Positions 1-38,874 of a stretch of DNA of 39,704 nt are shown here, one piece after another (within the stretch, counting starts at the first letter, position 1; each line of letters opens with the position of its first letter). The notes below the pieces were generated by a model. The model worked only from the letters and a program-made list of their open reading frames with translations, was not told where the DNA came from and did not search any database. This DNA is from Escherichia phage K1F: the sequence record NC_007456.1. One strand, written 5' to 3'. The position numbers were made by a program, and so were the translations under genes.

Positions 1-178
1 TCTCACAGTTCAAGAACCTCAAGTCTCCCCATAGGCCCTCTTTAAGTCCAGACCAAAGGCCCTACCCCAGTCTATCATAAGGTTGGACCGATGGTCAAGA
101 CGTCAGGTCAACGATAGGTCTAGGCTATGGCTTAGGGAAGGACGATAGGTGGTGACTATTGGTCTGTCTCTGAGTCTC
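1..178. repeat. Left direct terminal repeat (DTR), 178 bp, identical to 39527-39704
   Basis: Window start TCTCACAGTTCAAGAACCTC...CTGTCTCTGAGTCTC recurs exactly at the window end; typical of T7-like linear genomes. Confidence 0.95.
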
Positions 179-189
179 TATCTGTATCA

Positions 190-316
190 GACCATAGGTC
201 ACAGCCATAAGTCATAACCTCTACATCTCATAACCATAAGTCAAAACCTACAGTCTCACTAACCTACAGTCCTACAACCATAAGACACCAACACCTACAG
301 TCATAGACCTACAGTT
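190..316. repeat. Array of short direct repeats (CCTACAGT x4, CCATAAGTC-like x4) next to left DTR
   Basis: CCTACAGT at 247, 263, 294, 308; CCATA(A/G)GTC at 192, 205, 234, 278; analogous to T7 repeats flanking the terminal repeat. Confidence 0.7.
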
Positions 317-567
317 AATAGACACACAGCTATAGACTTAAGGTCAGAGACATGTTAGTCAAAGACTATATCCTCTTACACCATGAGGCCGACGATAGCT
401 CAATCAATATTATTTCGAATTACCTATTGACTATAGGTCCAGACTATGGCCTAATAGCTTCCGTCAACACGACACGGCAACAACCGGATAGTGAAGACGC
501 CTGGTCATCCCGGTTAAGTAGACAGCCTGATAAGTCATACGAACAACAGGCAGATGACAGAAAGTAG

Positions 568-597
568 TTGACAAGATGTAACGATAAGATGTAAGCT
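568..597 (+). promoter_or_regulatory. Candidate host sigma70 early promoter (TTGACA, 18-bp spacer, TAAGCT)
   Basis: Perfect -35 TTGACA at 568-573; weak -10 TAAGCT at 592-597; position matches T7 A-promoter region upstream of gene 0.3. Confidence 0.3.
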
Positions 598-784
598 GTA
601 CCACATCGAAACAACGGTGATGACCAACACTGAAATGGTCTACCTGAAGTCCTCTGACTGAAGGGAATGCTCTTTAACAATCTGGATAAACTCTTAATGT
701 GCGCCGATAGCGACTAACTACAGGGCCTTTGAGTCTACATCTGAAGGCCCTGACTGATAGTCACTAACTTAAAGGATGGACACT

Positions 785-1030
785 ATGAAACACTTAAGCA
801 CAATCACTAATCGCAATGAAGTATTCGTGAACACTAAAGGTTATGCGTGGATTCAGCTTAAAGAGATGACAGGAGCGCGTCACCGTGTGGTAGTGCGCAA
901 GGTCTCAAGCAAGCCGTTCAGCAACTACAGCGTAGATACTGTGCGTATAAACAACGAGACCTACCTGATAGACTCACAGATAACCGTGAGTCCTACAGCG
1001 GGCGTCTCAGCTCCTTATTTCGCTAACTGA
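785..1030 (+). CDS. Hypothetical early protein (82 aa; alternative start 776)
   Basis: ORF with AAGGA 9 nt upstream of ATG 785; first ORF after putative early promoter; no recognised homolog. Confidence 0.5.
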   Translation: MKHLSTITNRNEVFVNTKGYAWIQLKEMTGARHRVVVRKVSSKPFSNYSVDTVRINNETYLIDSQITVSPTAGVSAPYFAN

Positions 1031-1113
1031 GAGTGATTAACTACAGGTCGTTAGACTGCTAGCGGCCTGACTGATAGTCACTAACACATACTTAACTTTG
1101 AGAGGATATACCT

Positions 1114-1623
1114 ATGGAACGTAACGCTAACGCATACTATGAGCTGCTGGCTGCAACTGTTGAGCTGTTCAATGAGCGTATTCAGTACGACGAAATAACT
1201 GAAGGCGATGACTACAGCGATGCGCTGCATGAGGTCGTAGACGGTCAGGTTCCGCACTATTACCACGAGATTTTTACGGTGATGGCTGCTGATGGTATAG
1301 ACCACGAGTTCGAAGACTCTGGGCTGATGCCTGAGACCAAGGACGTAACGCGTATACTACAAGCTCGCATCTATGAGGCGCTGTATAACGATGTGTCTAA
1401 TAGCTCTGAGGTGGTCTGGTTTGAGGCTGAAGAGGAAGACGAAAAGGCTGAATATTGGGTAGTTGACACTAGAACAGGCGAGATAATTGAGGCAGCTGTA
1501 TCACTTTACGAGGCTATTGCATGTGCAAAAGAACTCTATGAGGAAGGTTTTCACATGCAGGTCGAAGACATCAACGATAACGTAGTGTTCGATCCTGCGG
1601 CTGCTGAGGAGGACTGCGAGTGA
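1114..1623 (+). CDS. 0.3: Ocr-like anti-restriction DNA-mimic protein (gene 0.3), 169 aa with C-terminal extension
   Basis: Strong similarity to T7 Ocr core (NERIQYDEI...[45 protein letters not shown]); highly acidic; SD GAGAGGA upstream. Confidence 0.9.
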
Positions 1624-1839
1624 TGGTAACTTATGGTCTCTGCCAGCACCACGTCACCAGCGCCCGGCTTATAGTCCAGACCGGGCGGTTAACCCATGAT
1701 GAGACTATGCGTCTCCTGAAGGTGGTCTACAAGCGCCGCAAGCGTATCCACGACAGTTTGCACGCTGAGTGATAGACGAGAGGCCGTCGACTGATAGGTG
1801 GCCTCAAAGATTATCACTTAAATTGATAGGAGTTAACTA

Positions 1840-2007
1840 ATGAAATTTACAATCATCGCACTTTACATCGCCAGCATTCTGTCATGGCTAACTGCGGTCA
1901 TAGTCGATGGGAATGCACTACGTCTTGGCTGGCTGGCAGTGGACATAATATTCTCTCCGGTAGGGATCGTGCGCGGTCTACTGATGTGGATTGGACTGGC
2001 GGGATAA
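1840..2007 (+). CDS. Small hydrophobic early protein (55 aa)
   Basis: ATG with AGGAG SD (taggagttaactaATG); two hydrophobic segments; not in ORF track (<60 aa). Confidence 0.45.
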   Translation: MKFTIIALYIASILSWLTAVIVDGNALRLGWLAVDIIFSPVGIVRGLLMWIGLAG

Positions 2008-2010
2008 TCT

Positions 2011-2208
2011 ATGAGTCTTGCACTATTGATAGCCATAGGCTATGGACTTATCGCCTACGTGCTGGTGAGAGACATCGACAAAGCGCGTAAAGTCTACAAA
2101 TTCAACTATGTACGTCTGGGCCGCTGGACTGTACGTCAACCTAACGGACGATTCATGCGCAACTTAGCGAACGTCTGGGATATAGCAACTATTGGGAGCA
2201 AACTGTAA
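2011..2208 (+). CDS. Small early protein (65 aa), N-terminal hydrophobic segment
   Basis: ORF track 2011..2208; starts 4 nt after previous ORF stop; position like T7 genes 0.4-0.6. Confidence 0.4.
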   Translation: MSLALLIAIGYGLIAYVLVRDIDKARKVYKFNYVRLGRWTVRQPNGRFMRNLANVWDIATIGSKL

Positions 2209-2288
2209 TGAAAACCGTATACATTAACAGACCATCTATCCGTTAGCAGTGTAGAGCAATACAGCGTGACGTGTTCTTACACCGCCGC

Positions 2289-2468
2289 ATGGAGGCTGAG
2301 GGCCATAAGTCCGAACTGATGTGTCTGGCGTATGGTGGACGACCGATCACTGACGATGGTAAACTTTTAGTCTCAGGCTGGAAGGCGATAGACCAACGGT
2401 CAACCATCAAGCACACGACTCACGGTGACTTCAGTCATCTTCACGCTAACCCACTGATATGCAAGTAA
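2289..2468 (+). CDS. Possible small early ORF (59 aa from ATG 2289; track gives GTG 2271)
   Basis: Open frame ending just upstream of promoter at 2474; no clear SD. Confidence 0.2.
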   Translation: MEAEGHKSELMCLAYGGRPITDDGKLLVSGWKAIDQRSTIKHTTHGDFSHLHANPLICK

Positions 2469-2473
2469 TTATG

Positions 2474-2496
2474 ACTTAACTATCACTATAGGACTC
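2474..2496 (+). promoter_or_regulatory. Phage RNAP promoter copy 1 (ACTTAACTATCACTATA|GGACTC), upstream of the RNAP gene
   Basis: Matches the 11-copy consensus; located 70 bp upstream of gene 1 start. Confidence 0.7.
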
Positions 2497-2565
2497 AAGG
2501 TCTAAGACTACAAGTGAAAGACCAAAGAGACTTTAAGTGAAAGACTAATAACAAGGACTTTAAGT

Positions 2566-5247
2566 ATGAGCGTCATCTCTATTGACAAACACGACTTCTC
2601 TGATGTGTCGAACGCCATTGAGCCGTTTAACCTGCTGGCCGACCACTACGGGCAAGACCTTGCAGTCAAACAGCTTCAGCTTGAGCATGAGGCATACACT
2701 GAAGGCGAGCGACGTTTCATCAAAAACCTTGAGCGACAGACTGAGCGCGGGGAACTGGCAGACAATCAGGTCGCCAAGCCTTTGATGCAGACTCTGGTTC
2801 CTAAGATTGCGCAAGCCGTCAAGGAGTGGCACGAAGGTCCAGACGGGAAGCTGTCAACCTCTCGTCCTAGCGTAGCGTTCACCATGTTGAGCACTGAAGA
2901 GAGGGCCGTTAAAGACCGTTCTCTACGCATCTCCTGCGAGTCTGCTGCTGTCATCATACTGAAGGTCATCCTCTCCAAGCTGGTCAAGCCTGAAGGGATA
3001 CCGATTACACCGATGGCCTCCGCGATAGGTCGCACACTTGAGGACGAAATCCGCTTCGGGCGCATCCGTGACAAGGAGAAGGAGCACTTCAAGAAGGCGA
3101 TAGCTGATAACCTGAACAAGCGAGCTGGTGCATCCTATAAGAAAGCCTACATGCAAGCGGTCGAAGCATCCATGCTGGAGCAAGGCCAACTGGAAGATGC
3201 ATGGGGGACTTGGAGTCCTACAGAGGCTGTCCACGTTGGCATCAAGATGCTTGAGATTGTCATCCAGTCAACACAACTGGTCGAGCTTAAGCGTTACGGT
3301 GCTGGCAATGCAGCGGCTGATGTCGAGATGGTCCACCTGTCAGACTTCTGGGTCAAGAAGATGGCACAACGTGGATTCAGCCTTGCGGGTATCGCACCAG
3401 TCTATCAGCCTTGCGTCGTTCCACCTAAGCCGTGGACGGGTGTCGTAGGCGGTGGTTACTGGGCCAAAGGTCGCAGACCATTACCGCTGATTCGCTTAGG
3501 CTCTAAGTCTGCGGTAGCACGTTACGAAGACGTGTACATGCCTGAAGTCTATGAAGCTGTGAACATCATTCAGAATACACCTTGGAAAGTGAACAAGAAG
3601 GTTCTGGACGTGGTGAACATGGTCGAGAAGCTGAACAACACGCCTATTGATGACATCCCTCAGATGGAACCACTGAAGCCTGAGGCTTATGCGGGTGAGA
3701 CCGAGGAGGAACTCAAGGCATGGAAGAAGGCTGCTGCTGGTATCTATCGCCGCGAGAAGGCCAGACAGTCACGCAGGTTGTCACTGAGCTTTATCGTTAA
3801 CCAAGCGAACAAGTTCTCTCAGTTCAAGGCTATATGGTTCCCGTACAACATGGACTGGCGCGGTCGCGTCTACGCTGTGCCGATGTTCAACCCTCAGGGT
3901 AACGACATGCAGAAGGGTCTCCTGACTCTGGCAGTTGGCAAGCCTATTGGTGCTGACGGTTTCAAATGGCTAAAGGTACACGGTGCAAACTGCGCGGGTG
4001 TCGATAAAGTCACCTTCGAGGAGCGCATCAAGTGGGTGGAAGACAACCACGACAACATCATGGCTGCTGCTAAAGCACCTATGGACAGCATTGAGTGGTG
4101 GGGAAAGTTAGACTCTCCGTTCTGTTTCCTCGCGTTCTGCTTCGAGTATGCTGGCGTAATGCACCATGGCCTGTCTTACTCCTGCTCGCTGCCGATAGCG
4201 TTCGATGGGTCCTGCTCTGGGATTCAGCACTTCAGCGCGATGCTTCGTGACCACATCGGTGGACATGCGGTAAACCTGACGCCTTCCGGTAAAGTCCAAG
4301 ACATCTACCGCATCGTGTCCGACCGCATTGAGGAGGAGCTTAAAGTCCTGCTGGTTAACGGCACGGACAACGAGATGGTAACTCACGAGGACAAGAAAAC
4401 TGGTGAGATTACCGAGCGTCTCAAGCTGGGGACACGAGAGCTGGCCCGTCAGTGGCTGACCTACGGTATGTCACGAAAGGTCACTAAGCGTTCGGTCATG
4501 ACTCTGGCCTACGGGTCGAAAGAGTACGGCTTCGCAGACCAAGTTTACGAGGACATCGTGATGCCAGCGATTGACTCAGGGTCTGGCGCTATGTTCACTG
4601 AACCAAGCCAAGCATCTCGCTTCATGGCTAAGATGATTTGGGAAGCTGTGAGTGTGACCGTAGTTGCTGCGGTTGACGCGATGAAATGGCTTCAGGGTGC
4701 TGCCAAGCTGCTGGCGGCTGAAGTGAAGGACAAGAAGACGGGTGAAATCCTGAAGCCTTGCCTTCCGGTACACTGGGTCACACCTGATGGGTTCCCGGTC
4801 TGGCAGGAATACCGCAAGAAGGATACTACTCGTCTGAACCTGATGTTCTTAGGGTCCTTCAACCTTCAACCTACCGTCAACAAAGGTACGAAGAAAGAGC
4901 TGGATAAGCACAAGCAGGAGTCAGGCATTAGCCCGAACTTCGTCCACTCACAAGATGGTAGCCACCTCCGCAAGACTGTAGTCCATACTCACCGCAAGTA
5001 TGGCGTGATGTCGTTCGCAGTGATTCACGATAGCTTCGGGACCATCCCGGCTGACGCTGAGTATCTGTTCCGTGGGGTCCGTGAGACTATGGTCGAGACC
5101 TACCGCGACAACGATGTGCTGCTTGACTTCTACGAGCAGTTTGAATACCAGCTTCACGAGAGCCAGCGCGATAAGTTGCCAGAGCTTCCGAAGAAAGGTA
5201 AACTGAATATCGAAGACATCTTGTCTTCAGACTTTGCATTCGCTTAA
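2566..5247 (+). CDS. 1: Single-subunit DNA-directed RNA polymerase (T7 gene 1 homolog), 893 aa
   Basis: Collinear similarity to T7 RNAP from N-terminus (KHDFSD...PFN.LADHYG) to C-terminal DFAFA; AAGGA SD. Confidence 0.97.
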   Translation: MSVISIDKHDFSDVSNAIEPFNLLADHYGQDLAVKQLQLEHEAYTEGERRFIKNLERQTERGELADNQVAKPLMQTLVPKIAQAVKEWHEGPDGKLSTSRPSVAFTMLSTEERAVKDRSLRISCESAAVIILKVILSKLVKPEGIPITPMASAIGRTLEDEIRFGRIRDKEKEHFKKAIADNLNKRAGASYKKAYMQAVEASMLEQGQLEDAWGTWSPTEAVHVGIKMLEIVIQSTQLVELKRYGAGNAAADVEMVHLSDFWVKKMAQRGFSLAGIAPVYQPCVVPPKPWTGVVGGGYWAKGRRPLPLIRLGSKSAVARYEDVYMPEVYEAVNIIQNTPWKVNKKVLDVVNMVEKLNNTPIDDIPQMEPLKPEAYAGETEEELKAWKKAAAGIYRREKARQSRRLSLSFIVNQANKFSQFKAIWFPYNMDWRGRVYAVPMFNPQGNDMQKGLLTLAVGKPIGADGFKWLKVHGANCAGVDKVTFEERIKWVEDNHDNIMAAAKAPMDSIEWWGKLDSPFCFLAFCFEYAGVMHHGLSYSCSLPIAFDGSCSGIQHFSAMLRDHIGGHAVNLTPSGKVQDIYRIVSDRIEEELKVLLVNGTDNEMVTHEDKKTGEITERLKLGTRELARQWLTYGMSRKVTKRSVMTLAYGSKEYGFADQVYEDIVMPAIDSGSGAMFTEPSQASRFMAKMIWEAVSVTVVAAVDAMKWLQGAAKLLAAEVKDKKTGEILKPCLPVHWVTPDGFPVWQEYRKKDTTRLNLMFLGSFNLQPTVNKGTKKELDKHKQESGISPNFVHSQDGSHLRKTVVHTHRKYGVMSFAVIHDSFGTIPADAEYLFRGVRETMVETYRDNDVLLDFYEQFEYQLHESQRDKLPELPKKGKLNIEDILSSDFAFA

Positions 5248-5261
5248 CAGGAGAGAGAGCT

Positions 5262-5477
5262 ATGAAATTTGCACACAAGCATACTGGCGTTAATGGTGGG
5301 ACTCAAATCGTGACCGTAACAGAACACAACGGCAAGGGTCTGGTGAAGACCACGGTCATCCCTACCGAGATGTCCAAGCAGCTTAACATCCCGTTCAAGA
5401 CTCTTGTAGATCTGGTCGAGTCCAGCCACGAGAAGTACCTGAAGGACGCAGTGTCCAAGCTGGAGCAGGCCAAATGA
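5262..5477 (+). CDS. Hypothetical protein (71 aa)
   Basis: ORF with strong SD (aacaggagagagagctATG) immediately after gene 1. Confidence 0.55.
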   Translation: MKFAHKHTGVNGGTQIVTVTEHNGKGLVKTTVIPTEMSKQLNIPFKTLVDLVESSHEKYLKDAVSKLEQAK

Positions 5478-5551
5478 CAGACCTACAGTTACTGGCCTTG
5501 TGGCTAGGAGCACTCGCAGTATTCACTTTAATCCAACGCAGAAGAGGTTAA

Positions 5552-5574
5552 CCTAAACTATCACTATAGGATTA
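5552..5574 (+). promoter_or_regulatory. Phage RNAP promoter copy 2 (CCTAAACTATCACTATA|GGATTA)
   Basis: Consensus match; position equals T7 phi1.1 promoters downstream of gene 1. Confidence 0.75.
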
Positions 5575-5618
5575 GACTCAAGGTCATGACTCAAAGTCGT
5601 GGCCTTCATGATTAACCC
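5573..5618 (+). promoter_or_regulatory. Conserved ~45-bp element A (TAGACTCAAGGTCAT...GTGGCCTTCATGATTAACCC), RNase III-site-like
   Basis: One of three near-identical elements (5573, 12860, 36453) at positions matching T7 R1.1, R4.7, R18.5. Confidence 0.4.
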
Positions 5619-5647
5619 TGAATAAACACTACTGGAGATTTAACCGT

Positions 5648-5828
5648 ATGTATCAGAATACTATCAACTTCGAGCGCATCCGTGAACGTCAGCAGACTTG
5701 AAGGTTACATTCCTAAGGGCCGCAAGCTGAACAAGACTAAACGTGGAGGTGGTATCAAGGGTGCTTTCCGTAACGCTGAGGGCAAAGACTCTATGGTCAA
5801 CCAAGAGAAATACTTCGTAGGAGCATAA
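5648..5828 (+). other. Gene 1.1-like coding region split across two frames (17-codon ORF 5648-5701, then +1-frame basic segment KGRKLNKTKR... ending 5828)
   Basis: ATG 5648 has GGAG SD and NFE motif; downstream frame has GRKLNKTKR motif recalled from T7 gp1.1 but only a GTG start (5682). Confidence 0.4.
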
Positions 5829-5832
5829 CGCT

Positions 5833-6096
5833 ATGGGCCGACTTTATAGTGGCAACCTCAACGCTTTCAGAGCAGCGTGTGACAGGCTCTATCAGTTAGA
5901 CTTCGCTGTCATATCTCAAGAGTTTCAAGACCATGTGTCACGCCAAGAGTGCATGAAACTCAGGGTAGAGGACCGAGCTGGTAACATCTTCGCGCTTAAG
6001 ACCTTCGAACACCGCGATGAAAACGTACTGTACAACACTGCAACAGGCTTCCTTAACTGTCTCGCTAACCAACTCGACACATGGAGCAAATCATAA
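5833..6096 (+). CDS. 1.2: gp1.2-like protein (T7 dGTPase inhibitor homolog), 87 aa
   Basis: N-terminus MGRLYSGNLNAF... closely matches T7 gp1.2. Confidence 0.88.
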   Translation: MGRLYSGNLNAFRAACDRLYQLDFAVISQEFQDHVSRQECMKLRVEDRAGNIFALKTFEHRDENVLYNTATGFLNCLANQLDTWSKS

Positions 6097-7118
6097 TGAC
6101 AACTATTAAAACTAACCCGCACCGCGCTGTAGATTACTCTGAGTCTGGCGTTAAGAAGGCACTGGCAGCAGCCGGGTCGCTGGAAGCTGAAGTGAAGTAT
6201 GACGGTGTGCGCCTGAATCTCCCGGTCCTGCGTGAAGGTGAGACCTACTGGCTGAGCCGTGAGTCTAAACCTCTTCCAGCCTTGGAGTGGATGAACTCTG
6301 AGTTAGGGAATGCGTGGACCCAAGCTGACTGGCGTTGGTTCCTACGTCAAGCTGGATACGAAGGCGTGGGTCTGATGATTGACGGAGAGGTCATGGTCAA
6401 AGGCGTTGACTTCAACACATCATCGGGTCTCATCCGAACGAAGTGGCTGAAGCCTAGCAACGAAGAGTTCGCTGAATGTTATCCGGGACGAGGCAATAAG
6501 GTCCCGTTCTGGGTAGCCCGGTCAAGACTTAAGGTTGTTGTATACGGTGTCGTAGACATGACAACCATTGCTGACCCGAAAGCCGAAGGTCCTATCCATA
6601 GCGTAACCCGCCTGAAGGCCGAAGCTATCGTCCCTCTCCTTCAGAAATACTTCCCGGAAATCGACTGGGTTCTCTCTGAGAGTCATACAGTGTTCAACCT
6701 TGAGTCTCTTCGTGATTTGTACGAGGAGAAGCGAGCAGATGGACATGAAGGTCTGGTAGTCAAGGACCCACTGGGAAAATACAAGCGTGGTAAGAAGTCT
6801 GGTATGTGGAAGATGAAGCCAAGTGAAGAGGCAGATGGTCACGTTGTTCGCCCGGTGTGGGGAACAGAAGGTCTAGCCAACGAAGGTATGGTCATCGGCT
6901 TTGACGTTATGCTCGAGAACGGGATGGAGGTCTCCGCAACTAACATTAGTCGCGCCCTTATGTCCGAGTTCACAGAGAATGTTAAGTCAGACCCTGACTA
7001 CTACAAGGGGTGGGCTTGCCAGATTACCTACATGGAGGAGACACCAGATGGCTCATTGCGACATCCCTCGTTCGACCAGTGGCGTGGGACGGAAGATAAC
7101 CCGACCATTAAGAGCTAA
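6096..7118 (+). CDS. 1.3: ATP-dependent DNA ligase (T7 gene 1.3 homolog)
   Basis: IKTNP...EVKYDGVR (adenylation Lys motif) ...DGEVMVKGVDFNT...EGLVVKDP...WKMKP...WACQITYMEETPDGSLRHPSF; start at ATG 6096 (track 6081) overlapping 1.2 stop. Confidence 0.93.
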   Translation: MTTIKTNPHRAVDYSESGVKKALAAAGSLEAEVKYDGVRLNLPVLREGETYWLSRESKPLPALEWMNSELGNAWTQADWRWFLRQAGYEGVGLMIDGEVMVKGVDFNTSSGLIRTKWLKPSNEEFAECYPGRGNKVPFWVARSRLKVVVYGVVDMTTIADPKAEGPIHSVTRLKAEAIVPLLQKYFPEIDWVLSESHTVFNLESLRDLYEEKRADGHEGLVVKDPLGKYKRGKKSGMWKMKPSEEADGHVVRPVWGTEGLANEGMVIGFDVMLENGMEVSATNISRALMSEFTENVKSDPDYYKGWACQITYMEETPDGSLRHPSFDQWRGTEDNPTIKS

Positions 7119-7127
7119 CTAAATGTC

Positions 7128-7160
7128 AACCCAGTGGTCTTATGACTGCTGGGTTTCTTT
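7128..7160 (+). terminator. Rho-independent terminator (early terminator TE analog)
   Basis: 12-bp stem AACCCAGTGGTC/GACTGCTGGGTT with TTAT loop followed by TCTTT; directly after ligase as in T7. Confidence 0.7.
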
Positions 7161-7182
7161 GCGTCTGGGCCACCAGCTAGAC

Positions 7183-7205
7183 CCTAAGCTATCACTATAG
7201 GACAA
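7183..7205 (+). promoter_or_regulatory. Phage RNAP promoter copy 3 (CCTAAGCTATCACTATA|GGACAA)
   Basis: Consensus match with G at -12. Confidence 0.7.
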
Positions 7206-7229
7206 CCATCAACAACCTAAGGAGACTCT

Positions 7230-7487
7230 ATGTCTAAGAACTTAATGTTCAACCGTTATTCTAATACCTTCCACCTGTCCAACAACCCGTTCGCTTGCAT
7301 TAAGCGCAACGAGAAACTTGGCTACTTCGGGAAGGCCGTTAAGCTGTCACCTACAGTCTATGCTCTGATTACTCCTGGAAAAGCTGAAGAGGCTCGCCAG
7401 AAGCGTGAGACAAATGTGCCCGTGGTCTACACTAAGTGGCCTCGCGTTCGGCTGTTTGTTGAGGTCGTAAAGGAGGTGTTCTTATGA
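7230..7487 (+). CDS. Hypothetical protein (85 aa), gene 1.4-1.6 position
   Basis: ORF with AAGGAG SD downstream of promoter 7183. Confidence 0.6.
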   Translation: MSKNLMFNRYSNTFHLSNNPFACIKRNEKLGYFGKAVKLSPTVYALITPGKAEEARQKRETNVPVVYTKWPRVRLFVEVVKEVFL

Positions 7488-7930
7488 CTACTTATGATAA
7501 TATGATTATCAAGCTAATCGATATGAACGATGGTAATCCAGACCATTTATATAACTGTTCCTTCAATTGTGCTGGAGTTCCTTGTAACATCTGCCCCGCT
7601 AAGGATGATGACGATATGACCTTAGGTGAAATCCGAGCGATGGACCCGCGTAAATCTCATCTGAATAAACTTGAGGTAACTCCTACAGATGACCAGCCTT
7701 CCACTGAATCAATCGAAGGTGTCACTAAGCCTTCCCATTACATGCTGTTCGACGACATTGAGGCTATCGAAGTGATTGCCCGTTCAATGACTCGTGAGCA
7801 GTTCAAAGGGTACTGCTTAGGGAACATCCTTAAGTACCGCCTACGCGCTGGTAAGAAAGTCAGAACTTGCTTACTTAGAGAAAGCCAGGGCGAAAGTTGG
7901 ATTCTATGGGGAACTGTACGAGAAACATAA
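7484..7930 (+). CDS. gp1.7-like protein (DUF3310-like motifs); C-terminus appears to continue in +1 frame to 7952
   Basis: Motifs KPSHY...IEAIEV...FKGYCLGNILKYRLRAGKK; after AAGAAAG (7853-7859) the +1 frame reads SELAYLEKARAKVGFYGELYEKHKDKCYDA*. Confidence 0.6.
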   Translation: MTTYDNMIIKLIDMNDGNPDHLYNCSFNCAGVPCNICPAKDDDDMTLGEIRAMDPRKSHLNKLEVTPTDDQPSTESIEGVTKPSHYMLFDDIEAIEVIARSMTREQFKGYCLGNILKYRLRAGKKVRTCLLRESQGESWILWGTVRET

Positions 7931-7941
7931 GGATAAGTGCT

Positions 7942-8169
7942 ATGACGCGTGAAGAACTTCAAGCTGCATCGGCGAAGCGTAGAGCGCAAAGATTTTATCG
8001 TGCATACAAGGCGCTGCGTAAGGGTATGTCGATGTTCAAATTAGGACACAGGGAGTATTGTGATAGCGACCTCCTACCGTTTGCTTATAAGAAGACACCT
8101 AGTCTGATTATCAAGGTAGAGGAGTATGAATATTCTGATGACTGTGTTATGGTGAACCGCTATGCTTAA
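7942..8169 (+). CDS. Hypothetical basic protein (75 aa)
   Basis: ATG 7942 with AAGGATAAG SD; in frame with track ORF 7897..8169. Confidence 0.5.
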   Translation: MTREELQAASAKRRAQRFYRAYKALRKGMSMFKLGHREYCDSDLLPFAYKKTPSLIIKVEEYEYSDDCVMVNRYA

Positions 8170-8266
8170 CGATGTTCTGTACTTCGGCTTAATTTGCGCT
8201 GGAGTAGGCGCGTTACTTCGCTTAATGTATTGGGAGATAGAGGTGGAATATGGTAAAACCAAGTGA
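8162..8266 (+). CDS. Possible small hydrophobic ORF (34 aa)
   Basis: ATG overlapping previous stop; weak SD. Confidence 0.25.
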   Translation: MLNDVLYFGLICAGVGALLRLMYWEIEVEYGKTK

Positions 8267-8348
8267 GTGGTGCCGTGAGATGTATGAGAAGACGCTCAAC
8301 CCGGACTACATCACGTTATACAACCAATGGAAGGAGCGCGGTTTATGA
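8250..8348 (+). CDS. Possible small ORF (32 aa)
   Basis: GAGGTGG SD; stop overlaps gene 2 start (ATGA). Confidence 0.35.
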
Positions 8349-8503
8349 CTGAGGTTGAGAAGAAATACATCGTGGAGCTTGAGGGTCGCGTTCAGTCCTT
8401 CGAGGTTCCGTTGTATGCAAAGTCTCTTGAAGAGGCTACCCTGAAGTCCCAAGAGTATGAGGACGCTGGGTTTGTGGTCGGACGGATTCGTCCTGAGACC
8501 TAA
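8345..8503 (+). CDS. 2: Gp2-like inhibitor of host RNA polymerase (52 aa)
   Basis: ...[17 protein letters not shown]...GFVVGRIRP resembles T7 Gp2 (FEVPIYAETLDEA...GFEVTRVRP); AAGGAG SD; not in ORF track (<60 aa). Confidence 0.75.
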
Positions 8504-8521
8504 ACTATCACTGTAGGACAG
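8499..8521 (+). promoter_or_regulatory. Phage RNAP promoter copy 4, variant (CCTAAACTATCACTGTA|GGACAG; G at -3)
   Basis: Consensus match except -3; overlaps gene 2 stop; upstream of SSB. Confidence 0.6.
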
Positions 8522-8560
8522 ACGTCCAGTTCGTAACTTTAAAATAGGAGATTTACACCG

Positions 8561-8614
8561 ATGGCTAAAGAGCAACTGAAGACTTTCACCACTCCGGTAG
8601 CTGGCATAGTTTGA
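8561..8614 (+). other. 17-codon leader ORF in frame with SSB gene, ended by TGA at 8612
   Basis: ATG 8561 has strong SD (AGGAGA, 10-nt spacing); same frame as ATG 8624; MAKEQLKTF resembles T7 gp2.5 N-terminus MAKKIFTS. Confidence 0.4.
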
Positions 8615-8623
8615 GCCTTACGC

Positions 8624-9259
8624 ATGGCTGACAAAGCAGACACCAAGTTTAACGAGCGTGGTGAGCATAAGGTTAACCTGACTTTCAGTCTGGATGACCC
8701 GAAGGTCCGTAAGATGATTGATGTCTTACAGAAGATTCACGACGATGCGTATGCGAAAGCACTTGCAGACCACGAGAAGAACCCACCTCAGGTTCAGCGT
8801 GGCAAGAAGCCTATTGAACCACGAGAAGGCGACATGCCGTGGATTGAGAATGGTGACGGTACTGTTACCATGAAGTTTAAATGCTTCGCGTCTTACCTGA
8901 AAGACGGCAAGTCCGAGCCTATCGTATTACGGTTCTACGACACCGATGCTAAACTCATCCGTGACGTCCCGAATATTGGCGCTGGCTCAAAGCTGAAGGT
9001 CAAGTTTAAAGTCCTGCCGTTTAAGTGGAACGCTGCGACTGGTGCAAGCGTTAAGCTCCAACTTGAGTCCTGCCTTCTGGTAGAACTGAAGGAGTGGAAA
9101 GGTGATGGTGCTGGTGGCGATGGTGGCTGGGGTGACGATGAAGACCTCGGTACTGGCTACAAAGCGTCAACCGATGGTGACTTCGGGTCTGATGACTTCG
9201 GTGACGATGGTTCCGAAGGTGGTGACGACTCCAACTCTGGTGGCGATTACGACTTCTAA
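8624..9259 (+). CDS. 2.5: Single-stranded DNA-binding protein (T7 gp2.5 homolog) with acidic C-terminal tail ending DYDF
   Basis: KVNLT...HEKNPP...RGKKPIEPREGDMPW...NGDGT...KFKCFASY...VKLQLESCLLVEL and acidic tail ...GGDYDF as in T7 (...DGDF). Confidence 0.9.
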   Translation: MADKADTKFNERGEHKVNLTFSLDDPKVRKMIDVLQKIHDDAYAKALADHEKNPPQVQRGKKPIEPREGDMPWIENGDGTVTMKFKCFASYLKDGKSEPIVLRFYDTDAKLIRDVPNIGAGSKLKVKFKVLPFKWNAATGASVKLQLESCLLVELKEWKGDGAGGDGGWGDDEDLGTGYKASTDGDFGSDDFGDDGSEGGDDSNSGGDYDF

Positions 9260-9711: not shown

Positions 9712-10178
9712 GCAAGCAGTTTAAACTGTTAAGTGCTGAGTGTGGCTGGCCTTGTGGGACTATCGTTACCCAGTGTGAGAAGGACCCCCAGCCAGCGATA
9801 GGAATGATTCTAGTTGAGTGCCAGACTCCAGGCACCTACAAACACGGGTCTAAAGGCCACAATACGCAACCTGAGGGAATGTGGGGAGCGTGGGTCTGTA
9901 CTGAACGCCTTGAAGAAATCAAGACAGAAGAGAAACACCAAGTCCTGCCAACTTCGAGCGTACCTCCTGTGACTGTGAAGCGTGAAGTCCTGACAATCGA
10001 CAAGATTGGTGTGGGCCAGACGTTCATCGTCCACGGCAAGCCTGACGAAGTTTACGTGAAGATTAGCAACTCACACGTCTTCAACCATAAGCGTCTCCAG
10101 ATGCACACCACCGGACGCACAACGCTTCACCCAGCACATGAATCTAGTGGTCGTAGAATTGGTGGTGTACAATGGTAA
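9708..10178 (+). CDS. Hypothetical Cys-containing protein (156 aa) between genes 3 and 3.5
   Basis: ORF with AAGGAG SD, start overlaps gene 3 stop (ATGA); no T7 counterpart at this position. Confidence 0.6.
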   Translation: MSKQFKLLSAECGWPCGTIVTQCEKDPQPAIGMILVECQTPGTYKHGSKGHNTQPEGMWGAWVCTERLEEIKTEEKHQVLPTSSVPPVTVKREVLTIDKIGVGQTFIVHGKPDEVYVKISNSHVFNHKRLQMHTTGRTTLHPAHESSGRRIGGVQW

Positions 10179-10630
10179 GTAAGGTGCAATTCAACCCACG
10201 GTCCCGGACTGACGCTATCTTCGTTCACTGTTCGGCTACCAAGCCAGAGATGGACATCGGGGTAGAGACCATCCGTATGTGGCACAAGCAGCAGGCTTGG
10301 CTGGACGTAGGCTACCACTTTATCATCAAGCGTGATGGTACTGTGGAAGAGGGTCGCCCGGTAAATGTCGTAGGGTCACACGTTAAGGATTGGAACTCCC
10401 GGTCTGTAGGCGTCTGCCTTGTAGGTGGAATCAACGCTAAGGGTCAGTTTGAAGCTAACTTCACTCCAGCCCAGATGAACTCCCTGCGCAACAAGCTGGA
10501 TGACCTGAAGGTCATGTATCCTCAGGCAGAGATAAGAGCACACCATGACGTAGCACCAAAGGCGTGTCCAAGTTTCGACTTACAGCGCTGGCTGTCTACC
10601 AATGAACTGGTCACTTCCGACCGTGGTTAA
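10172..10630 (+). CDS. 3.5: N-acetylmuramoyl-L-alanine amidase / T7 lysozyme homolog (gene 3.5)
   Basis: VQF..R...DAIFVHCSATKP...WH..Q.WLDVGYHFIIKRDGTVE.GR...VGSH.KG.N..S.GVCLVGGI...AHHDVAPKACPSFDL.RW...ELVTSDRG. Confidence 0.93.
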   Translation: MVSKVQFNPRSRTDAIFVHCSATKPEMDIGVETIRMWHKQQAWLDVGYHFIIKRDGTVEEGRPVNVVGSHVKDWNSRSVGVCLVGGINAKGQFEANFTPAQMNSLRNKLDDLKVMYPQAEIRAHHDVAPKACPSFDLQRWLSTNELVTSDRG

Positions 10631-10654: not shown

Positions 10655-10870
10655 ATGATTAAACTTATCGAATTTCTTGGTCGTCTGGTGGTGCGTGGTT
10701 ATCGTCGTGCTTCGGTACTGGAACGAAAGGTAGAAAAGAAGACTGCTGATGGTGCGGCTGATGCTGCTGCTCTGGCTGACAAGCTGACCATCGCGTCACT
10801 GGAAGCTGGCATGAAGGCTCGTCAGGCTGATACCAAAGCTGACCAGTTGGAGCAGTTCTTCAAAGACTAA
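10655..10870 (+). CDS. Hypothetical protein (71 aa), Ala-rich, likely helical
   Basis: ORF with GGGAGA SD after lysozyme gene. Confidence 0.55.
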   Translation: MIKLIEFLGRLVVRGYRRASVLERKVEKKTADGAADAAALADKLTIASLEAGMKARQADTKADQLEQFFKD

Positions 10871-10888
10871 ACTATCACCTTAGGGATG
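10866..10888 (+). promoter_or_regulatory. Degenerate phage promoter-like site (AACTATCACCTTA|GGGA; mismatches at -4 and -3)
   Basis: Shares the -13 to -5 block with the consensus; just upstream of gene 4. Confidence 0.35.
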
Positions 10889-17176: not shown

Positions 17177-17199
17177 ACTAAACTATCACTATAGGGACT
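17177..17199 (+). promoter_or_regulatory. Phage RNAP promoter copy 6 (ACTAAACTATCACTATA|GGGACT)
   Basis: Consensus match; T7 phi6.5 position. Confidence 0.75.
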
Positions 17200-18433: not shown

Positions 18434-20002
18434 ATGGCTGAACGTGAAGGGTTCGCTGCTGAAGGCGCGAAGGCAGTTTATGATAGACTGAAGAACGGTA
18501 GACAGCCATATGAGACACGCGCTCAGAACTGTGCTGCTGTCACTATCCCGTCACTGTTTCCTAAGGAGTCAGACAACTCATCTACTGAGTATACCACTCC
18601 GTGGCAAGCTGTAGGTGCTCGCTGCTTGAACAACTTGGCTGCAAAGCTGATGCTGGCGTTATTCCCGCAGTCACCATGGATGCGACTGACAGTCTCCGAA
18701 TATGAGGCCAAGACCTTGAGTCAGGACTCAGAGGCTGCTGCTCGTGTTGACGAAGGGCTTGCTATGGTCGAGCGTGTGTTGATGGCCTACATGGAGACTA
18801 ACAGTTTCCGTGTGCCATTGTTCGAAGCTCTGAAGCAGCTTATCGTCTCCGGTAACTGTCTGCTTTACATTCCAGAGCCTGAACAGGGTACTTACAGTCC
18901 TATGCGAATGTACCGCTTAGTGTCCTACGTTGTTCAACGTGATGCTTTCGGTAATATCTTGCAGATTGTGACTATCGACAAGGTAGCGTTTAGTGCTCTA
19001 CCGGAAGACGTTAAGTCCCAACTCAACGCAGACGACTATGAGCCTGACACAGAGCTGGAAGTATATACGCACATCTACCGTCAAGACGACGAGTACCTGC
19101 GTTACGAGGAAGTGGAAGGCATTGAGGTGACAGGGACCGATGGTTCCTACCCGCTGACTGCGTGTCCATACATCCCGGTACGAATGGTTCGACTGGATGG
19201 TGAAGACTATGGTCGTTCCTACTGCGAGGAGTATCTGGGAGACCTGAACTCGCTGGAGACGATTACAGAAGCTATCACCAAAATGGCTAAGGTAGCCTCC
19301 AAGGTGGTGGGCCTCGTTAACCCGAACGGTATCACGCAACCTCGTCGTCTGAACAAGGCGGCTACAGGTGAGTTCGTTGCCGGTCGCGTTGAGGACATCA
19401 ACTTCCTGCAACTGACTAAGGGTCAGGACTTTACGATTGCCAAGTCGGTGGCTGATGCTATCGAGCAACGTTTAGGCTGGGCCTTCCTTCTTAATAGTGC
19501 TGTTCAGCGTAATGCCGAGCGAGTCACTGCTGAAGAGATTCGTTATGTTGCTGGAGAACTGGAGGCGACCTTAGGTGGCGTGTACTCAGTACAATCCCAA
19601 GAGCTTCAGTTACCTATCGTCCGTGTGCTGATGAACCAACTTCAGTCTGCTGGCATGATTCCTGACCTTCCGAAAGAAGCGGTAGAGCCTACTGTCTCCA
19701 CTGGTCTGGAAGCGTTAGGTCGTGGTCAGGACTTGGAGAAGCTAACTCAGGCGGTTAACATGATGACTGGTCTTCAGCCGCTATCTCAGGACCCGGACAT
19801 CAACTTGCCGACCCTTAAGCTACGACTCCTGAACGCTCTGGGTATCGACACCGCTGGCCTACTCCTGACGCAAGACGAGAAGATTCAGCGCATGGCTGAG
19901 CAGTCGTCTCAACAGGCAGTTGTCCAAGGTGCTAGTGCTGCTGGTGCTAACATGGGTGCTGCTGTAGGTCAGGGAGCTGGTGAGGACATGGCTCAAGCCT
20001 AA
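18434..20002 (+). CDS. 8: Portal (head-to-tail connector) protein (T7 gene 8 homolog)
   Basis: Near-collinear identity with T7 gp8 (YETRAQNCA...IPSLFPK...PWQAVGAR.LNNLA.KLMLALFP...YRL.SYVVQRDAFGN...); AAGGAGGTGA SD. Confidence 0.95.
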   Translation: MAEREGFAAEGAKAVYDRLKNGRQPYETRAQNCAAVTIPSLFPKESDNSSTEYTTPWQAVGARCLNNLAAKLMLALFPQSPWMRLTVSEYEAKTLSQDSEAAARVDEGLAMVERVLMAYMETNSFRVPLFEALKQLIVSGNCLLYIPEPEQGTYSPMRMYRLVSYVVQRDAFGNILQIVTIDKVAFSALPEDVKSQLNADDYEPDTELEVYTHIYRQDDEYLRYEEVEGIEVTGTDGSYPLTACPYIPVRMVRLDGEDYGRSYCEEYLGDLNSLETITEAITKMAKVASKVVGLVNPNGITQPRRLNKAATGEFVAGRVEDINFLQLTKGQDFTIAKSVADAIEQRLGWAFLLNSAVQRNAERVTAEEIRYVAGELEATLGGVYSVQSQELQLPIVRVLMNQLQSAGMIPDLPKEAVEPTVSTGLEALGRGQDLEKLTQAVNMMTGLQPLSQDPDINLPTLKLRLLNALGIDTAGLLLTQDEKIQRMAEQSSQQAVVQGASAAGANMGAAVGQGAGEDMAQA

Positions 20003-20020
20003 ACTATCACTATAGGAACA
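19998..20020 (+). promoter_or_regulatory. Phage RNAP promoter copy 7 (CCTAAACTATCACTATA|GGAACA)
   Basis: Consensus match; overlaps portal stop; upstream of scaffold gene. Confidence 0.75.
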
Positions 20021-20996: not shown

Positions 20997-21019
20997 ACTA
21001 AACTATCACTATAGGGAGA
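20997..21019 (+). promoter_or_regulatory. Phage RNAP promoter copy 8 (ACTAAACTATCACTATA|GGGAGA), phi10 analog
   Basis: Only copy with full GGGAGA at +1 to +6; sits before major capsid gene. Confidence 0.85.
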
Positions 21020-25296: not shown

Positions 25297-25320
25297 CTTA
25301 TTGAAGGGCCTATAGATTTA

Positions 25321-25343
25321 CCTTAACTATCACTATAGGGACT
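25321..25343 (+). promoter_or_regulatory. Phage RNAP promoter copy 9 (CCTTAACTATCACTATA|GGGACT)
   Basis: Consensus match; upstream of gene 13. Confidence 0.75.
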
Positions 25344-25372
25344 ATAGGCCCTTAAGGTTATAAGGAGACTTT

Positions 25373-31700: not shown

Positions 31701-32601
31701 GCGTAAGTTCGATGACCGCTGGCTGAAGACCGCTGGTATCTCTGACGAGCAGTGGAAGGGCATTAAGTCCCTCATCCGTGAGTCAGTGACGCGTGGTCCA
31801 GACGGGAAGTACACCATCAAGGATAAGAAGGCGTTCAGTCAGGACCCAAGGGCTATGGACCTGTGGCGTATGGGTGACACCATCGCTGATGAAACGTTAC
31901 TCCGTCCTCATAAGCTGTCCAACATGGACGCCAAGGCTTATGGTCCTATCGCTAAGACTGTCCTTCAGTTTAAGAACTTCGTCATCAAGTCCATCAATGG
32001 GCGAACCATGCGTACCTTCTATAACGCCACGAAGAACAACCGAGCGATTGACGCTGCACTATCGACCGTGATGTCTATGGGTCTGGCTGGTATCTACTAC
32101 ATGGCTCAGGCGCACGTCAAGGCTTATGCTATGCAGGATGGTCGAGACCGTGACTACCTTAAGCAAGCTCTGGACCCGACGATGATTGGTTATGCGGCTC
32201 TGTCCCGTAGTTCACATCTGGGTGGCCCACTTGGGGTAGCTAACATTCTAGGTGGCATCGCTGGGTATGAGGACACTAAGATGCTCCGTTCGTCTATCCT
32301 ACCTCGTTCGCCTACAGAGAAGCCTGAACGTGCCATCACGTTTGGTGCAGCTACAAGTGACCCTGTGATGAATGTTGTTGGTAACTTCTTGGAGCAGGTT
32401 CCAGCTTTCGGATATGCTGCTAACGTTGGCGTTTCTGCTTACAACTTGGCTGGCTACCTCAAGGCTGATACTCGTGTCAACGAGCGTGACTACATGACCG
32501 GGATGTATAATACGTTCCGTGAACTGGTTCCGAACGACCCCATTACCCAGAAGCTGTTGCTTGGAATGTTTGAGGAGCAAGGCATCCACATCAAGGACTA
32601 A
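28714..32601 (+). CDS. 16: Internal virion protein D (T7 gene 16 homolog), 1295 aa; N-terminal ~140 aa divergent from T7
   Basis: Collinear with T7 gp16 from about residue 190 (...FGFG.A.EAE...RLEARETARN...DLVRSPTGMQSGASGK...NPAMFG...GTYVPHVY...); N-terminus starts MATRGIRNNNPGNIR. Confidence 0.93.
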   Translation: MATRGIRNNNPGNIRVSKDQWEGMTGDDGAFVTFDSPESGVRALGKNLLSYGRQGYDSIEKIINRWAPPNENDTQAYIDSVVAATGIPATQSLDLSNPDTLSALAQAISFHETGSRYNPEVYQQGVARALNGISPKTPPVSANVFDALTEGLKAKPKVALGENLPTAAGLNIEGQAPEAPNESFGEMFYKATGETMQEREDRSTWFGFGTATEAEVKNSMVGVAIRAGQTEDSLDVIGDVFNPTRWNNHKWSREELDQIRNAGVLPQYYGVITGGSPQNLTELINLALENQKFDQEKAKAGTGAQLAAGVIGAGVDPLTYVPIAGQVGKGGKLVNKMFTVAAQSGALAGASEIARTSVAGGDAHVAEAIMGGALFGGGMTAIGDAIGKALGKSTNEFAGPATRLEARETARNVDGQDLSRMPIREGEETFSHQGVKFADVPNEPGSVRLEDGSILIGENPLNPKTRQVFDEVIEPERAAAGVNLGGLTEIGLKLLRSENPEIRGVATDLVRSPTGMQSGASGKIGTTASDVFERLRAVDHRFYNDIDDAVTEALKDPYFQTAFWRDSGAFRQDIYQRVSMAIEDGSGNLKAELTPGELKVYDLLKNQFDAKREMMENPAMFGRPDAQSIFPGSRFKGTYVPHVYSKQMKELYIKELGSPEALQEAIKKSWLTSYASRPEVKKRVDEALLEADPTLTPEGLAAAVDKYANDKAYGISHTEQFERSSVMEENINGLVGLENNSFLEARNLFDSDMSIVLPNGQTFSVNNLREWDMDKIVPAYNRRINGDIAIMAGTGKTTKDMKDLVETMMNKAGDDGKLKGEVSTLRDTLKILTGRARRDGADDAAFATVMRTMTDLSFFAKNAYMGVQNLTEIGGMLARGNVRAMLHGVPIFRDLAFRNKKVGASEIKDLHNVIFGKELDDSIRPSKQDVIDRLRSYSDLGRGTATALGTAKYYTGELAVRSPFTKVLNGTTNYLLDAGRQGFLSDIVEHSLTGSKRKFDDRWLKTAGISDEQWKGIKSLIRESVTRGPDGKYTIKDKKAFSQDPRAMDLWRMGDTIADETLLRPHKLSNMDAKAYGPIAKTVLQFKNFVIKSINGRTMRTFYNATKNNRAIDAALSTVMSMGLAGIYYMAQAHVKAYAMQDGRDRDYLKQALDPTMIGYAALSRSSHLGGPLGVANILGGIAGYEDTKMLRSSILPRSPTEKPERAITFGAATSDPVMNVVGNFLEQVPAFGYAANVGVSAYNLAGYLKADTRVNERDYMTGMYNTFRELVPNDPITQKLLLGMFEEQGIHIKD

Positions 32602-32619
32602 ACTATCACTATAGGAAAC
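32597..32619 (+). promoter_or_regulatory. Phage RNAP promoter copy 10 (ACTAAACTATCACTATA|GGAAAC)
   Basis: Consensus match; overlaps gene 16 stop; upstream of tail spike gene. Confidence 0.75.
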
Positions 32620-38851: not shown

Positions 38852-38874
38852 ACTTAACTATCACTATAGGAAGA
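38852..38874 (+). promoter_or_regulatory. Phage RNAP promoter copy 11 (ACTTAACTATCACTATA|GGAAGA), phiOR analog
   Basis: Consensus match downstream of gene 19, as T7 phiOR. Confidence 0.75.

Follow-up and report, generated by a model that had tools for sequence, protein, structure and literature searches.

Gene 1 locus of phage K1F

Escherichia phage K1F belongs to the genus Kayfunavirus of the Studiervirinae (GenBank AM084414/NC_007636), and its genes are ordered as in T7, with the early genes 0.1 to 0.38 followed by gene 1 and then by genes 1.1, 1.15, 1.2, and 1.3. Here, we describe a 23-bp promoter element, phi1, that lies directly upstream of gene 1 in a stretch of 39,704 nucleotides of K1F DNA (sequence record NC_007456.1; the whole stretch is called the window, and coordinates are counted from its first letter). 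The first 6 kb of the window match AM084414/NC_007636 with 100% identity. Gene 1 (2566 to 5247, + strand) is an open reading frame for a single-subunit phage RNA polymerase (RNAP) of 893 amino acids, and its product matches Pfam RNA_pol (PF00940) at 1.5e-106 as well as RPOL_N (PF14700). The early gene preceding it, 0.38 (2208 to 2468, + strand, according to the AM084414 annotation), ends in a stop codon at 2466 to 2468, and phi1 begins 6 nt past that codon. The element occupies 2474 to 2496 on the + strand, reads ACTTAACTATCACTATAGGACTC in the window sequence, and spans positions −17 to +6 around a predicted transcription start at G2491. An earlier note, made from the letters of this DNA alone, had placed a phage-type promoter 70 bp upstream of gene 1; the distance holds, as the 3′ edge at 2496 lies 69 to 70 nt before the ATG.

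Between G2491 and the gene 1 ATG (2566) are 75 nt, which form the predicted leader of a phi1 transcript (2491 to 2565, + strand). The leader is AT-rich, carries repeated GACTnnAAGTGAAAGAC motifs, and includes a Shine-Dalgarno sequence, AAGGA, at 2553 to 2557. Folding of the leader gave no terminator-like hairpin followed by a U run, and the class II pause signal ATCTGTT, whose frequency in the genome is at chance, does not occur between 2491 and 2566. A terminator scan of positions 1 to 6000 likewise returned no terminator-like site, and sigma-70 promoter counts in the same region were at chance. An Rfam search at an E value of ≤1 over positions 1 to 9000 gave no matches.

Two candidate host sigma-70 early promoters lie on the + strand far to the left of phi1. 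The first (427 to 463; TTGACT...TAATAG) is the positional equivalent of a feature annotated as "host RNAP promoter" in the related phage EcoDS1, and the second (568 to 605; TTGACA-18-TAAGCT) was found by the scan and corresponds to a second EcoDS1 host promoter. To the right, a TE-like intrinsic terminator (7128 to 7163, + strand) follows gene 1.3 and consists of a hairpin at 7128 to 7155 and then UUUCUUUG. It was spotted by eye and confirmed by folding, the simple terminator scan having missed it; the fold has a free energy of −19.8 kcal/mol and a z score of −4.3, and none of 200 shuffled sequences folded equally well. This terminator occupies the place of the T7 early terminator TE, and its sequence and position mark it as the predicted end of the host-polymerase early unit that contains phi1. 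With predicted host promoters upstream and a TE-like terminator downstream, phi1 therefore falls inside a host-driven early operon. Uninterrupted host read-through from 427 or 568 to the terminator at 7128 is the predicted trigger that would supply the first phage polymerase.

phi1 as a full-consensus member of the K1F promoter family

phi1 belongs to a family of phage promoters that recurs across the K1F genome. When the whole window was searched with the phi1 sequence at ≤3 mismatches, the site itself and two other copies were recovered, and none of 100 shuffled genomes contained any match to the 23-mer at that threshold, so none is expected by chance. The core TCACTATAGG is present in nine exact copies, every one on the + strand. 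A weight matrix was built from ten strong copies, named after the gene downstream of each, with starts at 2491 (phi1), 5569 (phi1.15), 7200 (phi1.6), 8516 (phi2.5), 17194 (phi6.5), 20015 (phi9), 21014 (phi10), 25338 (phi13), 32614 (phi17), and 38869 (phiOR). These ten sites have in common a 20-base consensus, MCTWAACTATCACTATAGGR, with which phi1 agrees at each position from −17 to +3.

The weight-matrix score of phi1 is 35.4 bits, or 32.7 bits when it is left out of the matrix, and the other nine strong copies score 25.8 to 38.0 bits by the same leave-one-out procedure. Next in rank genome-wide comes a weaker, eleventh copy (start 10883; 22.5 bits), and beyond these eleven, the scan of both strands found no site above 12.3 bits. 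The K1F family thus consists of ten strong copies and one weak copy, all on the + strand. The good consensus match that the earlier note had reported is confirmed at full-consensus level from −17 to +3, and its figure of 11 copies is right because the eleventh stands far above the remainder. Like every other family member, phi1 is read rightward; it is intergenic and has the CACTATAGG core, TATA at −4 to −1, and G at +1 and +2. Its start, GGACTC, belongs to the "GGA" class, as do those of phi1.15, phi1.6, phi2.5, phi9, and phi17, while phi10 has GGGAGA.

Conservation and covariation with polymerase specificity

Comparison with related genomes, a check that the earlier note had proposed, covered 80 loci whose polymerases are related to that of K1F; 21 of them form a K1F clade with 79 to 99% polymerase identity. 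A phage-type promoter lies upstream of gene 1 in all 21, and its start falls between −75 and −102 relative to the ATG. Conservation was also assessed with a motif-agnostic test, in which the 300 nt preceding gene 1 are compared with the 3 kb that follow it and the best-matching 19-mer is scored. The match was 18 to 19 of 19 positions in all 20 testable loci of the clade, and each T7-, T3-, and K11-type locus tested gave 14 to 16 of 19, which is the level of noise; for the T7-type loci, the test thus gave no promoter in the 300 nt before gene 1. The remaining K1F-clade locus (L015), which comes without downstream sequence, has the site at −75 according to a regular-expression scan. In GenBank, 219 of 219 phage records with a polymerase at least 80% identical to that of K1F retain the region 2440 to 2600 at a coverage of at least 80%. 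Within one specificity class, the promoter is invariant from −12 to +3, while positions −18 to −22 vary.

Three promoter specificities occur within the clade, and the site before gene 1 tracks each of them. In the K1F type, N748 and N756 of the specificity loop (T7 numbering) pair with AACTATCAC, in which bases −12 to −8 are ACTAT. In the GW1 type, represented by two loci (L016 and L035), the residues are D748 and R756, exactly as in T3, and pair with AACCCTCAC, in which the same bases are ACCCT; T3 promoters have ACCCT too. In Citrobacter phage CR8, K748, as in K11, pairs with GGAAGGTACAC, and the bases are GGTAC. The site upstream of gene 1 matches the consensus of its own genome at 19 of 19 positions in each of these specificity types. 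It has therefore been retuned twice to remain cognate, which argues that it is under selection as a promoter. The joint shift of the site, the other promoters, and the specificity loop is, as far as comparison of sequences goes, strong evidence for a working cognate promoter. phi1 is thus a full-consensus family member that is conserved in position and coevolves with polymerase specificity, and the cognate phage promoter proposed in the earlier note appears real by family score, conservation, and covariation alike. The comparison also suggests a test for genome annotation, in which a predicted phage promoter is taken as real if the site follows changes in the specificity loop of the polymerase.

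One subclade of five loci (L010, L011, L012, L018, and L019) departs from this pattern at one base. Here, phi1, which lies at −81 from gene 1, has an A at −2 (CACTAAAGG), and the remaining promoters of the same genomes keep a T at that position. The leader of this subclade is rearranged and pairs with the promoter core in a perfect stem of 10 bp.

Proposed positive autoregulation of the polymerase gene

We propose, with a probability of roughly 70%, that 2474 to 2496 is a functional promoter of K1F RNAP, placed within the host-transcribed early operon before the polymerase's own gene, and that it serves self-amplification. phi1 lies upstream of gene 1 on the same strand, and any transcript from G2491 must therefore include that gene. 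The arrangement is that of an autogene, with a cognate promoter, the same strand, a 75-nt leader, and no terminator between promoter and gene. That the phage RNAP could transcribe its own gene, as the earlier note had suggested, appears to be the most economical reading, there being no terminator-like signal from start to gene. Positive autoregulation is a plausible account of the locus and probably the best one.

The proposed course of events is as follows. Host RNAP would start at the left-end sigma-70 candidates (427 and 568) and read through genes 0.2 to 0.38 and gene 1 to the terminator at 7128 to 7163, yielding the first molecules of phage polymerase. These would initiate at G2491 and produce a transcript with the 75-nt leader that encodes gene 1. 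The same transcript would also cover the downstream DNA metabolism genes, since no terminator for the phage polymerase is expected until after gene 10. Gene 1 would thereby act as a natural autogene, with self-amplifying polymerase synthesis that could persist once the gene 2 product (gp2) silences the host polymerase, and the gene 3.5 product (gp3.5), a homolog of T7 lysozyme, would be the expected brake on the phage enzyme.

Both regulators are encoded by K1F. Gene 2 (8345 to 8503, + strand) specifies a gp2-type inhibitor of host RNAP (Pfam RNA_pol_inhib, 1.5e-19), and gene 3.5 (10172 to 10630, + strand) specifies a T7 lysozyme-type amidase (Pfam Amidase_2, 2.2e-15) that the depositors annotated as "lysozyme/RNA polymerase inhibitor." In T7, gp2 shuts off host transcription, and lysozyme restrains the phage polymerase. 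By analogy, the two homologs support a loop in which the host would prime, the phage would amplify, and lysozyme would limit polymerase synthesis. We infer that initiation at G2491 takes place in vivo, that it contributes a quantitative share of polymerase levels, and that gp3.5 restrains it. In K1F-like phages, the polymerase would then probably sustain its own synthesis after host shutoff, which bears on the timing of infection and on models of T7-type gene expression. The classic T7 rule, an early polymerase gene served by the host enzyme alone, appears not to hold across T7-like phages.

Several points weigh against this proposal. A literature search for transcript mapping in K1F or other Kayfunavirus members found nothing relevant, and the G2491 start is a predicted one. 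By analogy with what is established for T7 class II promoters, the GGACTC start may make phi1 weak and sensitive to lysozyme. The A at −2 that the five-locus subclade has in phi1 alone suggests selection for an attenuated promoter; together with the GGA-type start, it hints at a moderate, tuned strength for phi1. Feedback may also be incidental to a take-over of the early region, to genome entry, or to origin priming. T7, moreover, thrives without such a site, and the benefit of one is not obvious.

Alternative roles for phi1

The alternative that fares best is that phi1 mainly gives the phage polymerase its initial point of entry, used for the early-to-middle take-over and for transcription-coupled genome entry as in T7, with transcription of gene 1 as a by-product. 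We regard this as possible but doubtful as the principal role, and it is compatible with feedback. No phage promoter precedes phi1 on the K1F genome, whose left end has no intact phiOL (the leftmost phage promoter of T7), and phi1 lies upstream of the TE-like terminator. Phage NOI, which is of the gh-1 type, has a single phage promoter in its first ~9 kb, the one before gene 1, and T7-type genomes, which have no phi1, combine phiOL with promoters just past gene 1. However, phi1.15 (start 5569) is also upstream of the terminator and could serve the take-over without phi1, and whatever the purpose for which phi1 was selected, each G2491 transcript must hold gene 1.

A second alternative is a replication origin. 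The primary origin of T7 combines phi1.1A and phi1.1B with an AT-rich region, and the phi1 transcript might similarly prime DNA synthesis. The 60 nt that follow the promoter (+7 to +66) are 65% AT, within the top 1.5% of genome windows, and one T7-type primase motif (TGGTC, − strand) lies at 2520. Yet such AT richness is not distinctive, as it reaches 68% after phi6.5 and 65% after phi1.6 and phiOR and is expected of untranslated leaders. A single primase 5-mer is at chance level, and in one subclade the leader was rearranged while the promoter was retained. We consider an origin function unlikely.

The element might instead owe its conservation to RNA structure, with a hairpin in host-made early RNA forming an RNase III site before gene 1, equivalent to R1 of T7, and the likeness to a promoter being secondary. 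An imperfect hairpin is indeed predicted at 2483 to 2540 (+ strand), in read-through RNA only. In it, promoter positions −8 to +2 (2483 to 2492) pair with 2531 to 2540, and an inner GGTCT/AGACC stem joins 2499 to 2503 with 2519 to 2523. A hairpin is predicted in K1F-, L010-, and L016-type sequences, and their consensus structure has 13 pairs, one of them compensatory, with the −2 T-to-A change of the promoter matched by a downstream A-to-T change in three sequences. The CR8 promoter occupies the loop of a long hairpin, and a perfect inverted repeat of 10 bp similarly brackets phi13. On the other side, the intergenic and leader folds are no better than those of shuffled sequences (z scores of −0.19 and +0.33, respectively), and the case for a hairpin therefore comes down to its recurrence and one compensatory pair, a single covariation event that depends on the alignment. 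The Rfam search (E of ≤1, positions 1 to 9000) also had no match to the hairpin region. Nor does a hairpin explain the 23-of-23 agreement with the promoter consensus or the way in which bases −12 to −8 track polymerase specificity. As a replacement for promoter function, it is quite unlikely; at most, the hairpin could be an additional, overlapping feature, tentatively an R1-like RNase III site.

As an alternative to feedback, the earlier note had raised the idea that the promoter copy marks a recombination or mosaic boundary. The early region left of phi1 is highly mosaic among relatives, and nucleotide homology to CR8 begins at 2494, just past the promoter. The CR8 case, though, reflects overall divergence together with a changed promoter specificity, and the coverage of 2440 to 2600 in all 219 GenBank relatives speaks against a boundary. 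Block mapping led us to reject it: in 19 of 20 K1F-clade loci, homology is collinear in a single block that starts at 2294, spans the promoter, and extends to at least 2834 to 3000. The recurrent mosaic breakpoints are at 2212/2294 and farther left rather than at 2474 to 2496, and the 3′ part of gene 0.38 (from 2294) moves with phi1 and gene 1 as one block of homology. A boundary at phi1 is thus very improbable and was not borne out.

Least credible of all is a chance match or a decaying relic without function, given the empty result with 100 shuffled genomes, the full-strength score, the invariance of the promoter across the clade while the −18 to −22 flank varies, and the two retunings that followed changes in polymerase specificity.

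Precedents and related systems

Elements equivalent to phi1 have been annotated before. The record of EcoDS1 (GenBank EU734172) lists "promoter, phi" at 2244 to 2266, which is identical to K1F phi1 at 23 of 23 positions and precedes gene 1 by the same distance, 70 nt. The CR8 record (HG818824) has a "predicted promoter" at 3356 to 3378, between 0.38 and gene 1, that is the positional homolog of phi1; it differs from the K1F element in its consensus (AAGGAAGGTACACTATAGG) and in being 102 nt upstream of gene 1. Neither record states a function, and the K1F record AM084414 has no annotated promoters. A 2026 Kayfunavirus genome paper describes CTWAACTATCACTATAGG repeats, one of which lies where the gene before the polymerase gene ends.

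In experiments that lend support to the promoter family, K1F RNAP acts specifically on the phi9 copy, published as PK1F, whose sequence gacatggctcaagcctaaactatcactatagg equals 19984 to 20016 of the window (PMC12218169 supplement). On PK1F, the frequency of targeted mutation rose 46,470-fold, versus 6- to 27-fold on noncognate promoters (PMC12218169). Within −17 to +3, phi1 and phi9 differ only at −17 and −14, and both variants are present in other members of the family. A further study (PMC10138996) tests only capsid gene promoters.

A functional precedent is Pseudomonas phage LUZ100, whose own phi1, immediately before the polymerase gene, has a start site determined by ONT-cappable-seq (Putzeys et al. 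2023; PMC10134795). The authors termed the feature peculiar and proposed bootstrapping by the host polymerase followed by a positive-feedback loop (PMC10134795). LUZ100 resembles K1F in having a phage-specific promoter directly before the phage polymerase gene, although the promoter sequences are unrelated. LUZ100 has an upstream terminator and a MarR/integrase module, and its loop was proposed to serve a lysis-lysogeny switch (PMC10134795). K1F, in contrast, is a strictly lytic phage; the scan found no terminator-like site upstream of phi1, and the K1F start is predicted from sequence. The novelty implied by the earlier note was therefore overstated, given the EcoDS1 and CR8 annotations and the mapped start and feedback proposal for LUZ100; both the element and the feedback idea are already on record, and the promoter is real rather than new.

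T7 offers partial counterparts. Its class II promoters phi1.1A, phi1.1B, and phi1.3 resemble phi1 in being rightward, intergenic 23-bp elements with the CACTATAGG core and a GGA-type start, and the class II promoters of the T7 early region also lie within a host-transcribed unit upstream of the early terminator. Unlike K1F phi1, however, phi1.1A, phi1.1B, and phi1.3 are all downstream of gene 1. These details of the class II promoters reportedly go back to Dunn and Studier (1983).

The other T7 counterpart is phiOL, which in T7-, T3-, and K11-type loci lies at −2745/−2608, −2813, and −2551 from gene 1, respectively. phiOL and phi1 share the leftmost place among the phage promoters of their genomes, and transcripts from phiOL would cross gene 1; unlike phi1, phiOL lies ~2.5 to 2.8 kb upstream of that gene and before the host promoters. 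The weight-matrix scan of K1F and a scan of the clade loci found no intact phiOL in the K1F clade, and in the sampled loci the two arrangements look mutually exclusive. Because phiOL precedes the early region in T7-type genomes, the phage enzyme has a formal route into gene 1 there as well. The statement in the earlier note that host RNAP alone transcribes gene 1 in T7 is thus a textbook simplification and overstated, since polymerase read-through from the upstream phiOL may also reach gene 1.

An artificial counterpart is the engineered T7 autogene, in which, according to the part of PMC1500874 that cites Dubendorff and Studier (1991), the polymerase gene is under its own promoter, and a trigger dose is followed by self-amplification. 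That construct is an artificial plasmid with a strong class III promoter. The K1F arrangement differs in being natural, in having a class II-like start, in lying within a host-driven operon, and in being accompanied by a gene for a lysozyme-type inhibitor. K1F RNAP is itself an orthogonal transcription tool, and a natural autogene with a gp3.5 brake could serve as a template for self-amplifying circuits.

The layout is also found well outside the K1F clade. For Pseudomonas phage phiIBB-PF7A, a phi1 promoter was predicted and named (PMC3080317). phiIBB-PF7A and the gh-1- and Pf-10-type phages have a promoter of their own consensus ~100 nt upstream of gene 1 and are without phiOL; they differ from K1F in that the consensus is AAAACCCTCACTGTGGC or CCCTCACCAAAACAGG and the polymerases are 54 to 57% identical to that of K1F. 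The combination of phi1 with no phiOL was found in Pseudomonas Ghunavirus (NOI and nine of nine loci at ≥76% identity), in Pifdecavirus Maksa, in one locus at 62% identity (L100), and in three distant loci at 36 to 39% (L102, L103, and L105). It was not found in Minipunavirus MP2, Wuhanvirus PS30, and some others.

Taken further, these comparisons raise the tentative idea, to which we give somewhat less than even odds, that the T7 layout, with host promoters and a distant phiOL, is the exception. Many T7-like phages (the K1F clade, CR8, the gh-1 and Pf-10 types, and some distant lineages) would then run a natural polymerase autogene, in which phi1 replaces phiOL and promoter strength is tuned by lineage, as with the A at −2. 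In K1F, the hairpin that phi1 overlaps would give host-made and phage-made gene 1 mRNAs differing 5′ ends and fates. If so, it would be phi1 that sets the dosage of the polymerase and the timing of infection in these strictly lytic phages.

Other promoter copies and side observations

The remaining family members, all on the + strand and identified with the weight matrix, are distributed along the genome to its right end. The next phage promoter after phi1 is phi1.15 (5552 to 5574; 36.2 bits), which lies downstream of genes 1 and 1.1. It is followed by phi1.6 (7183 to 7205), phi2.5 (8499 to 8521; a CACTGTAGG variant), phi4 (10866 to 10888), phi6.5 (17177 to 17199), phi9 (19998 to 20020; the copy used experimentally as PK1F with K1F RNAP), phi10 (20997 to 21019; with its GGGAGA start), and phi13 (25321 to 25343). 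The last two, phi17 (32597 to 32619) and phiOR (38852 to 38874; near the right end), were recovered by the mismatch search as well.

Two of these copies have peculiarities of their own. phi4, the weak eleventh copy at 22.5 bits, lies before gene 4 and is perfect from −17 to −5, and its melting region deviates (CACCTTAGGG); it may be weak by design, or it may be decaying. phi13 is flanked by the two arms of its 10-bp inverted repeat, GGGCCTATAG at 25306 to 25315 and CTATAGGCCC at 25342 to 25351. In read-through RNA, phi13 would occupy a hairpin loop, as phi1 does in CR8, and the structure is possibly an RNase III site.

The early region left of phi1 varies in several ways. In comparison with loci L002 to L035, positions 1 to 2300 form a patchwork among K1F-clade phages, with recurrent breakpoints near 568, 768 to 791, 1066, 1442, 1603 to 1622, 1765, 1844, 2009, 2212, and 2294, mostly at gene borders. 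Within gene 0.38, between 2240 and 2260, two 1-nt indels that compensate each other set the window apart from AM084414: the window has one T more at ~2243 and one A fewer at ~2258, and its version of the gene thereby acquires a frame-shifted patch of five codons with an in-frame TAG. A sequencing discrepancy between the two K1F records is the probable cause.

At the far left, CTATCTGT at 178 to 185 is identical to a feature annotated as "concatemeric junction" in EcoDS1 and is similar to the class II pause signal that T7 has at the end of its terminal repeat. Somewhat farther in, within the region 414 to 436, positions 421 to 436 (CTATTGACTATAGGTC) resemble a promoter core with one inserted base, and the inserted base creates the −35 element TTGACT of the first candidate host promoter. 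In a T3-type contig (L037), a phiOL-type promoter lies 617 nt before gene 1, versus ~2800 nt in another locus (L080), and this short distance implies a large deletion in the early region. Five K11-type loci of Klebsiella phages (L040, L042, L043, L047, and L061) have, at the corresponding left-end position (about −2490 to −2770 from gene 1), a second site, (A)CTATCACTATAGGTCTA, which matches the K1F-type core and not their own ATTAGGTAGCACTATAGG consensus.

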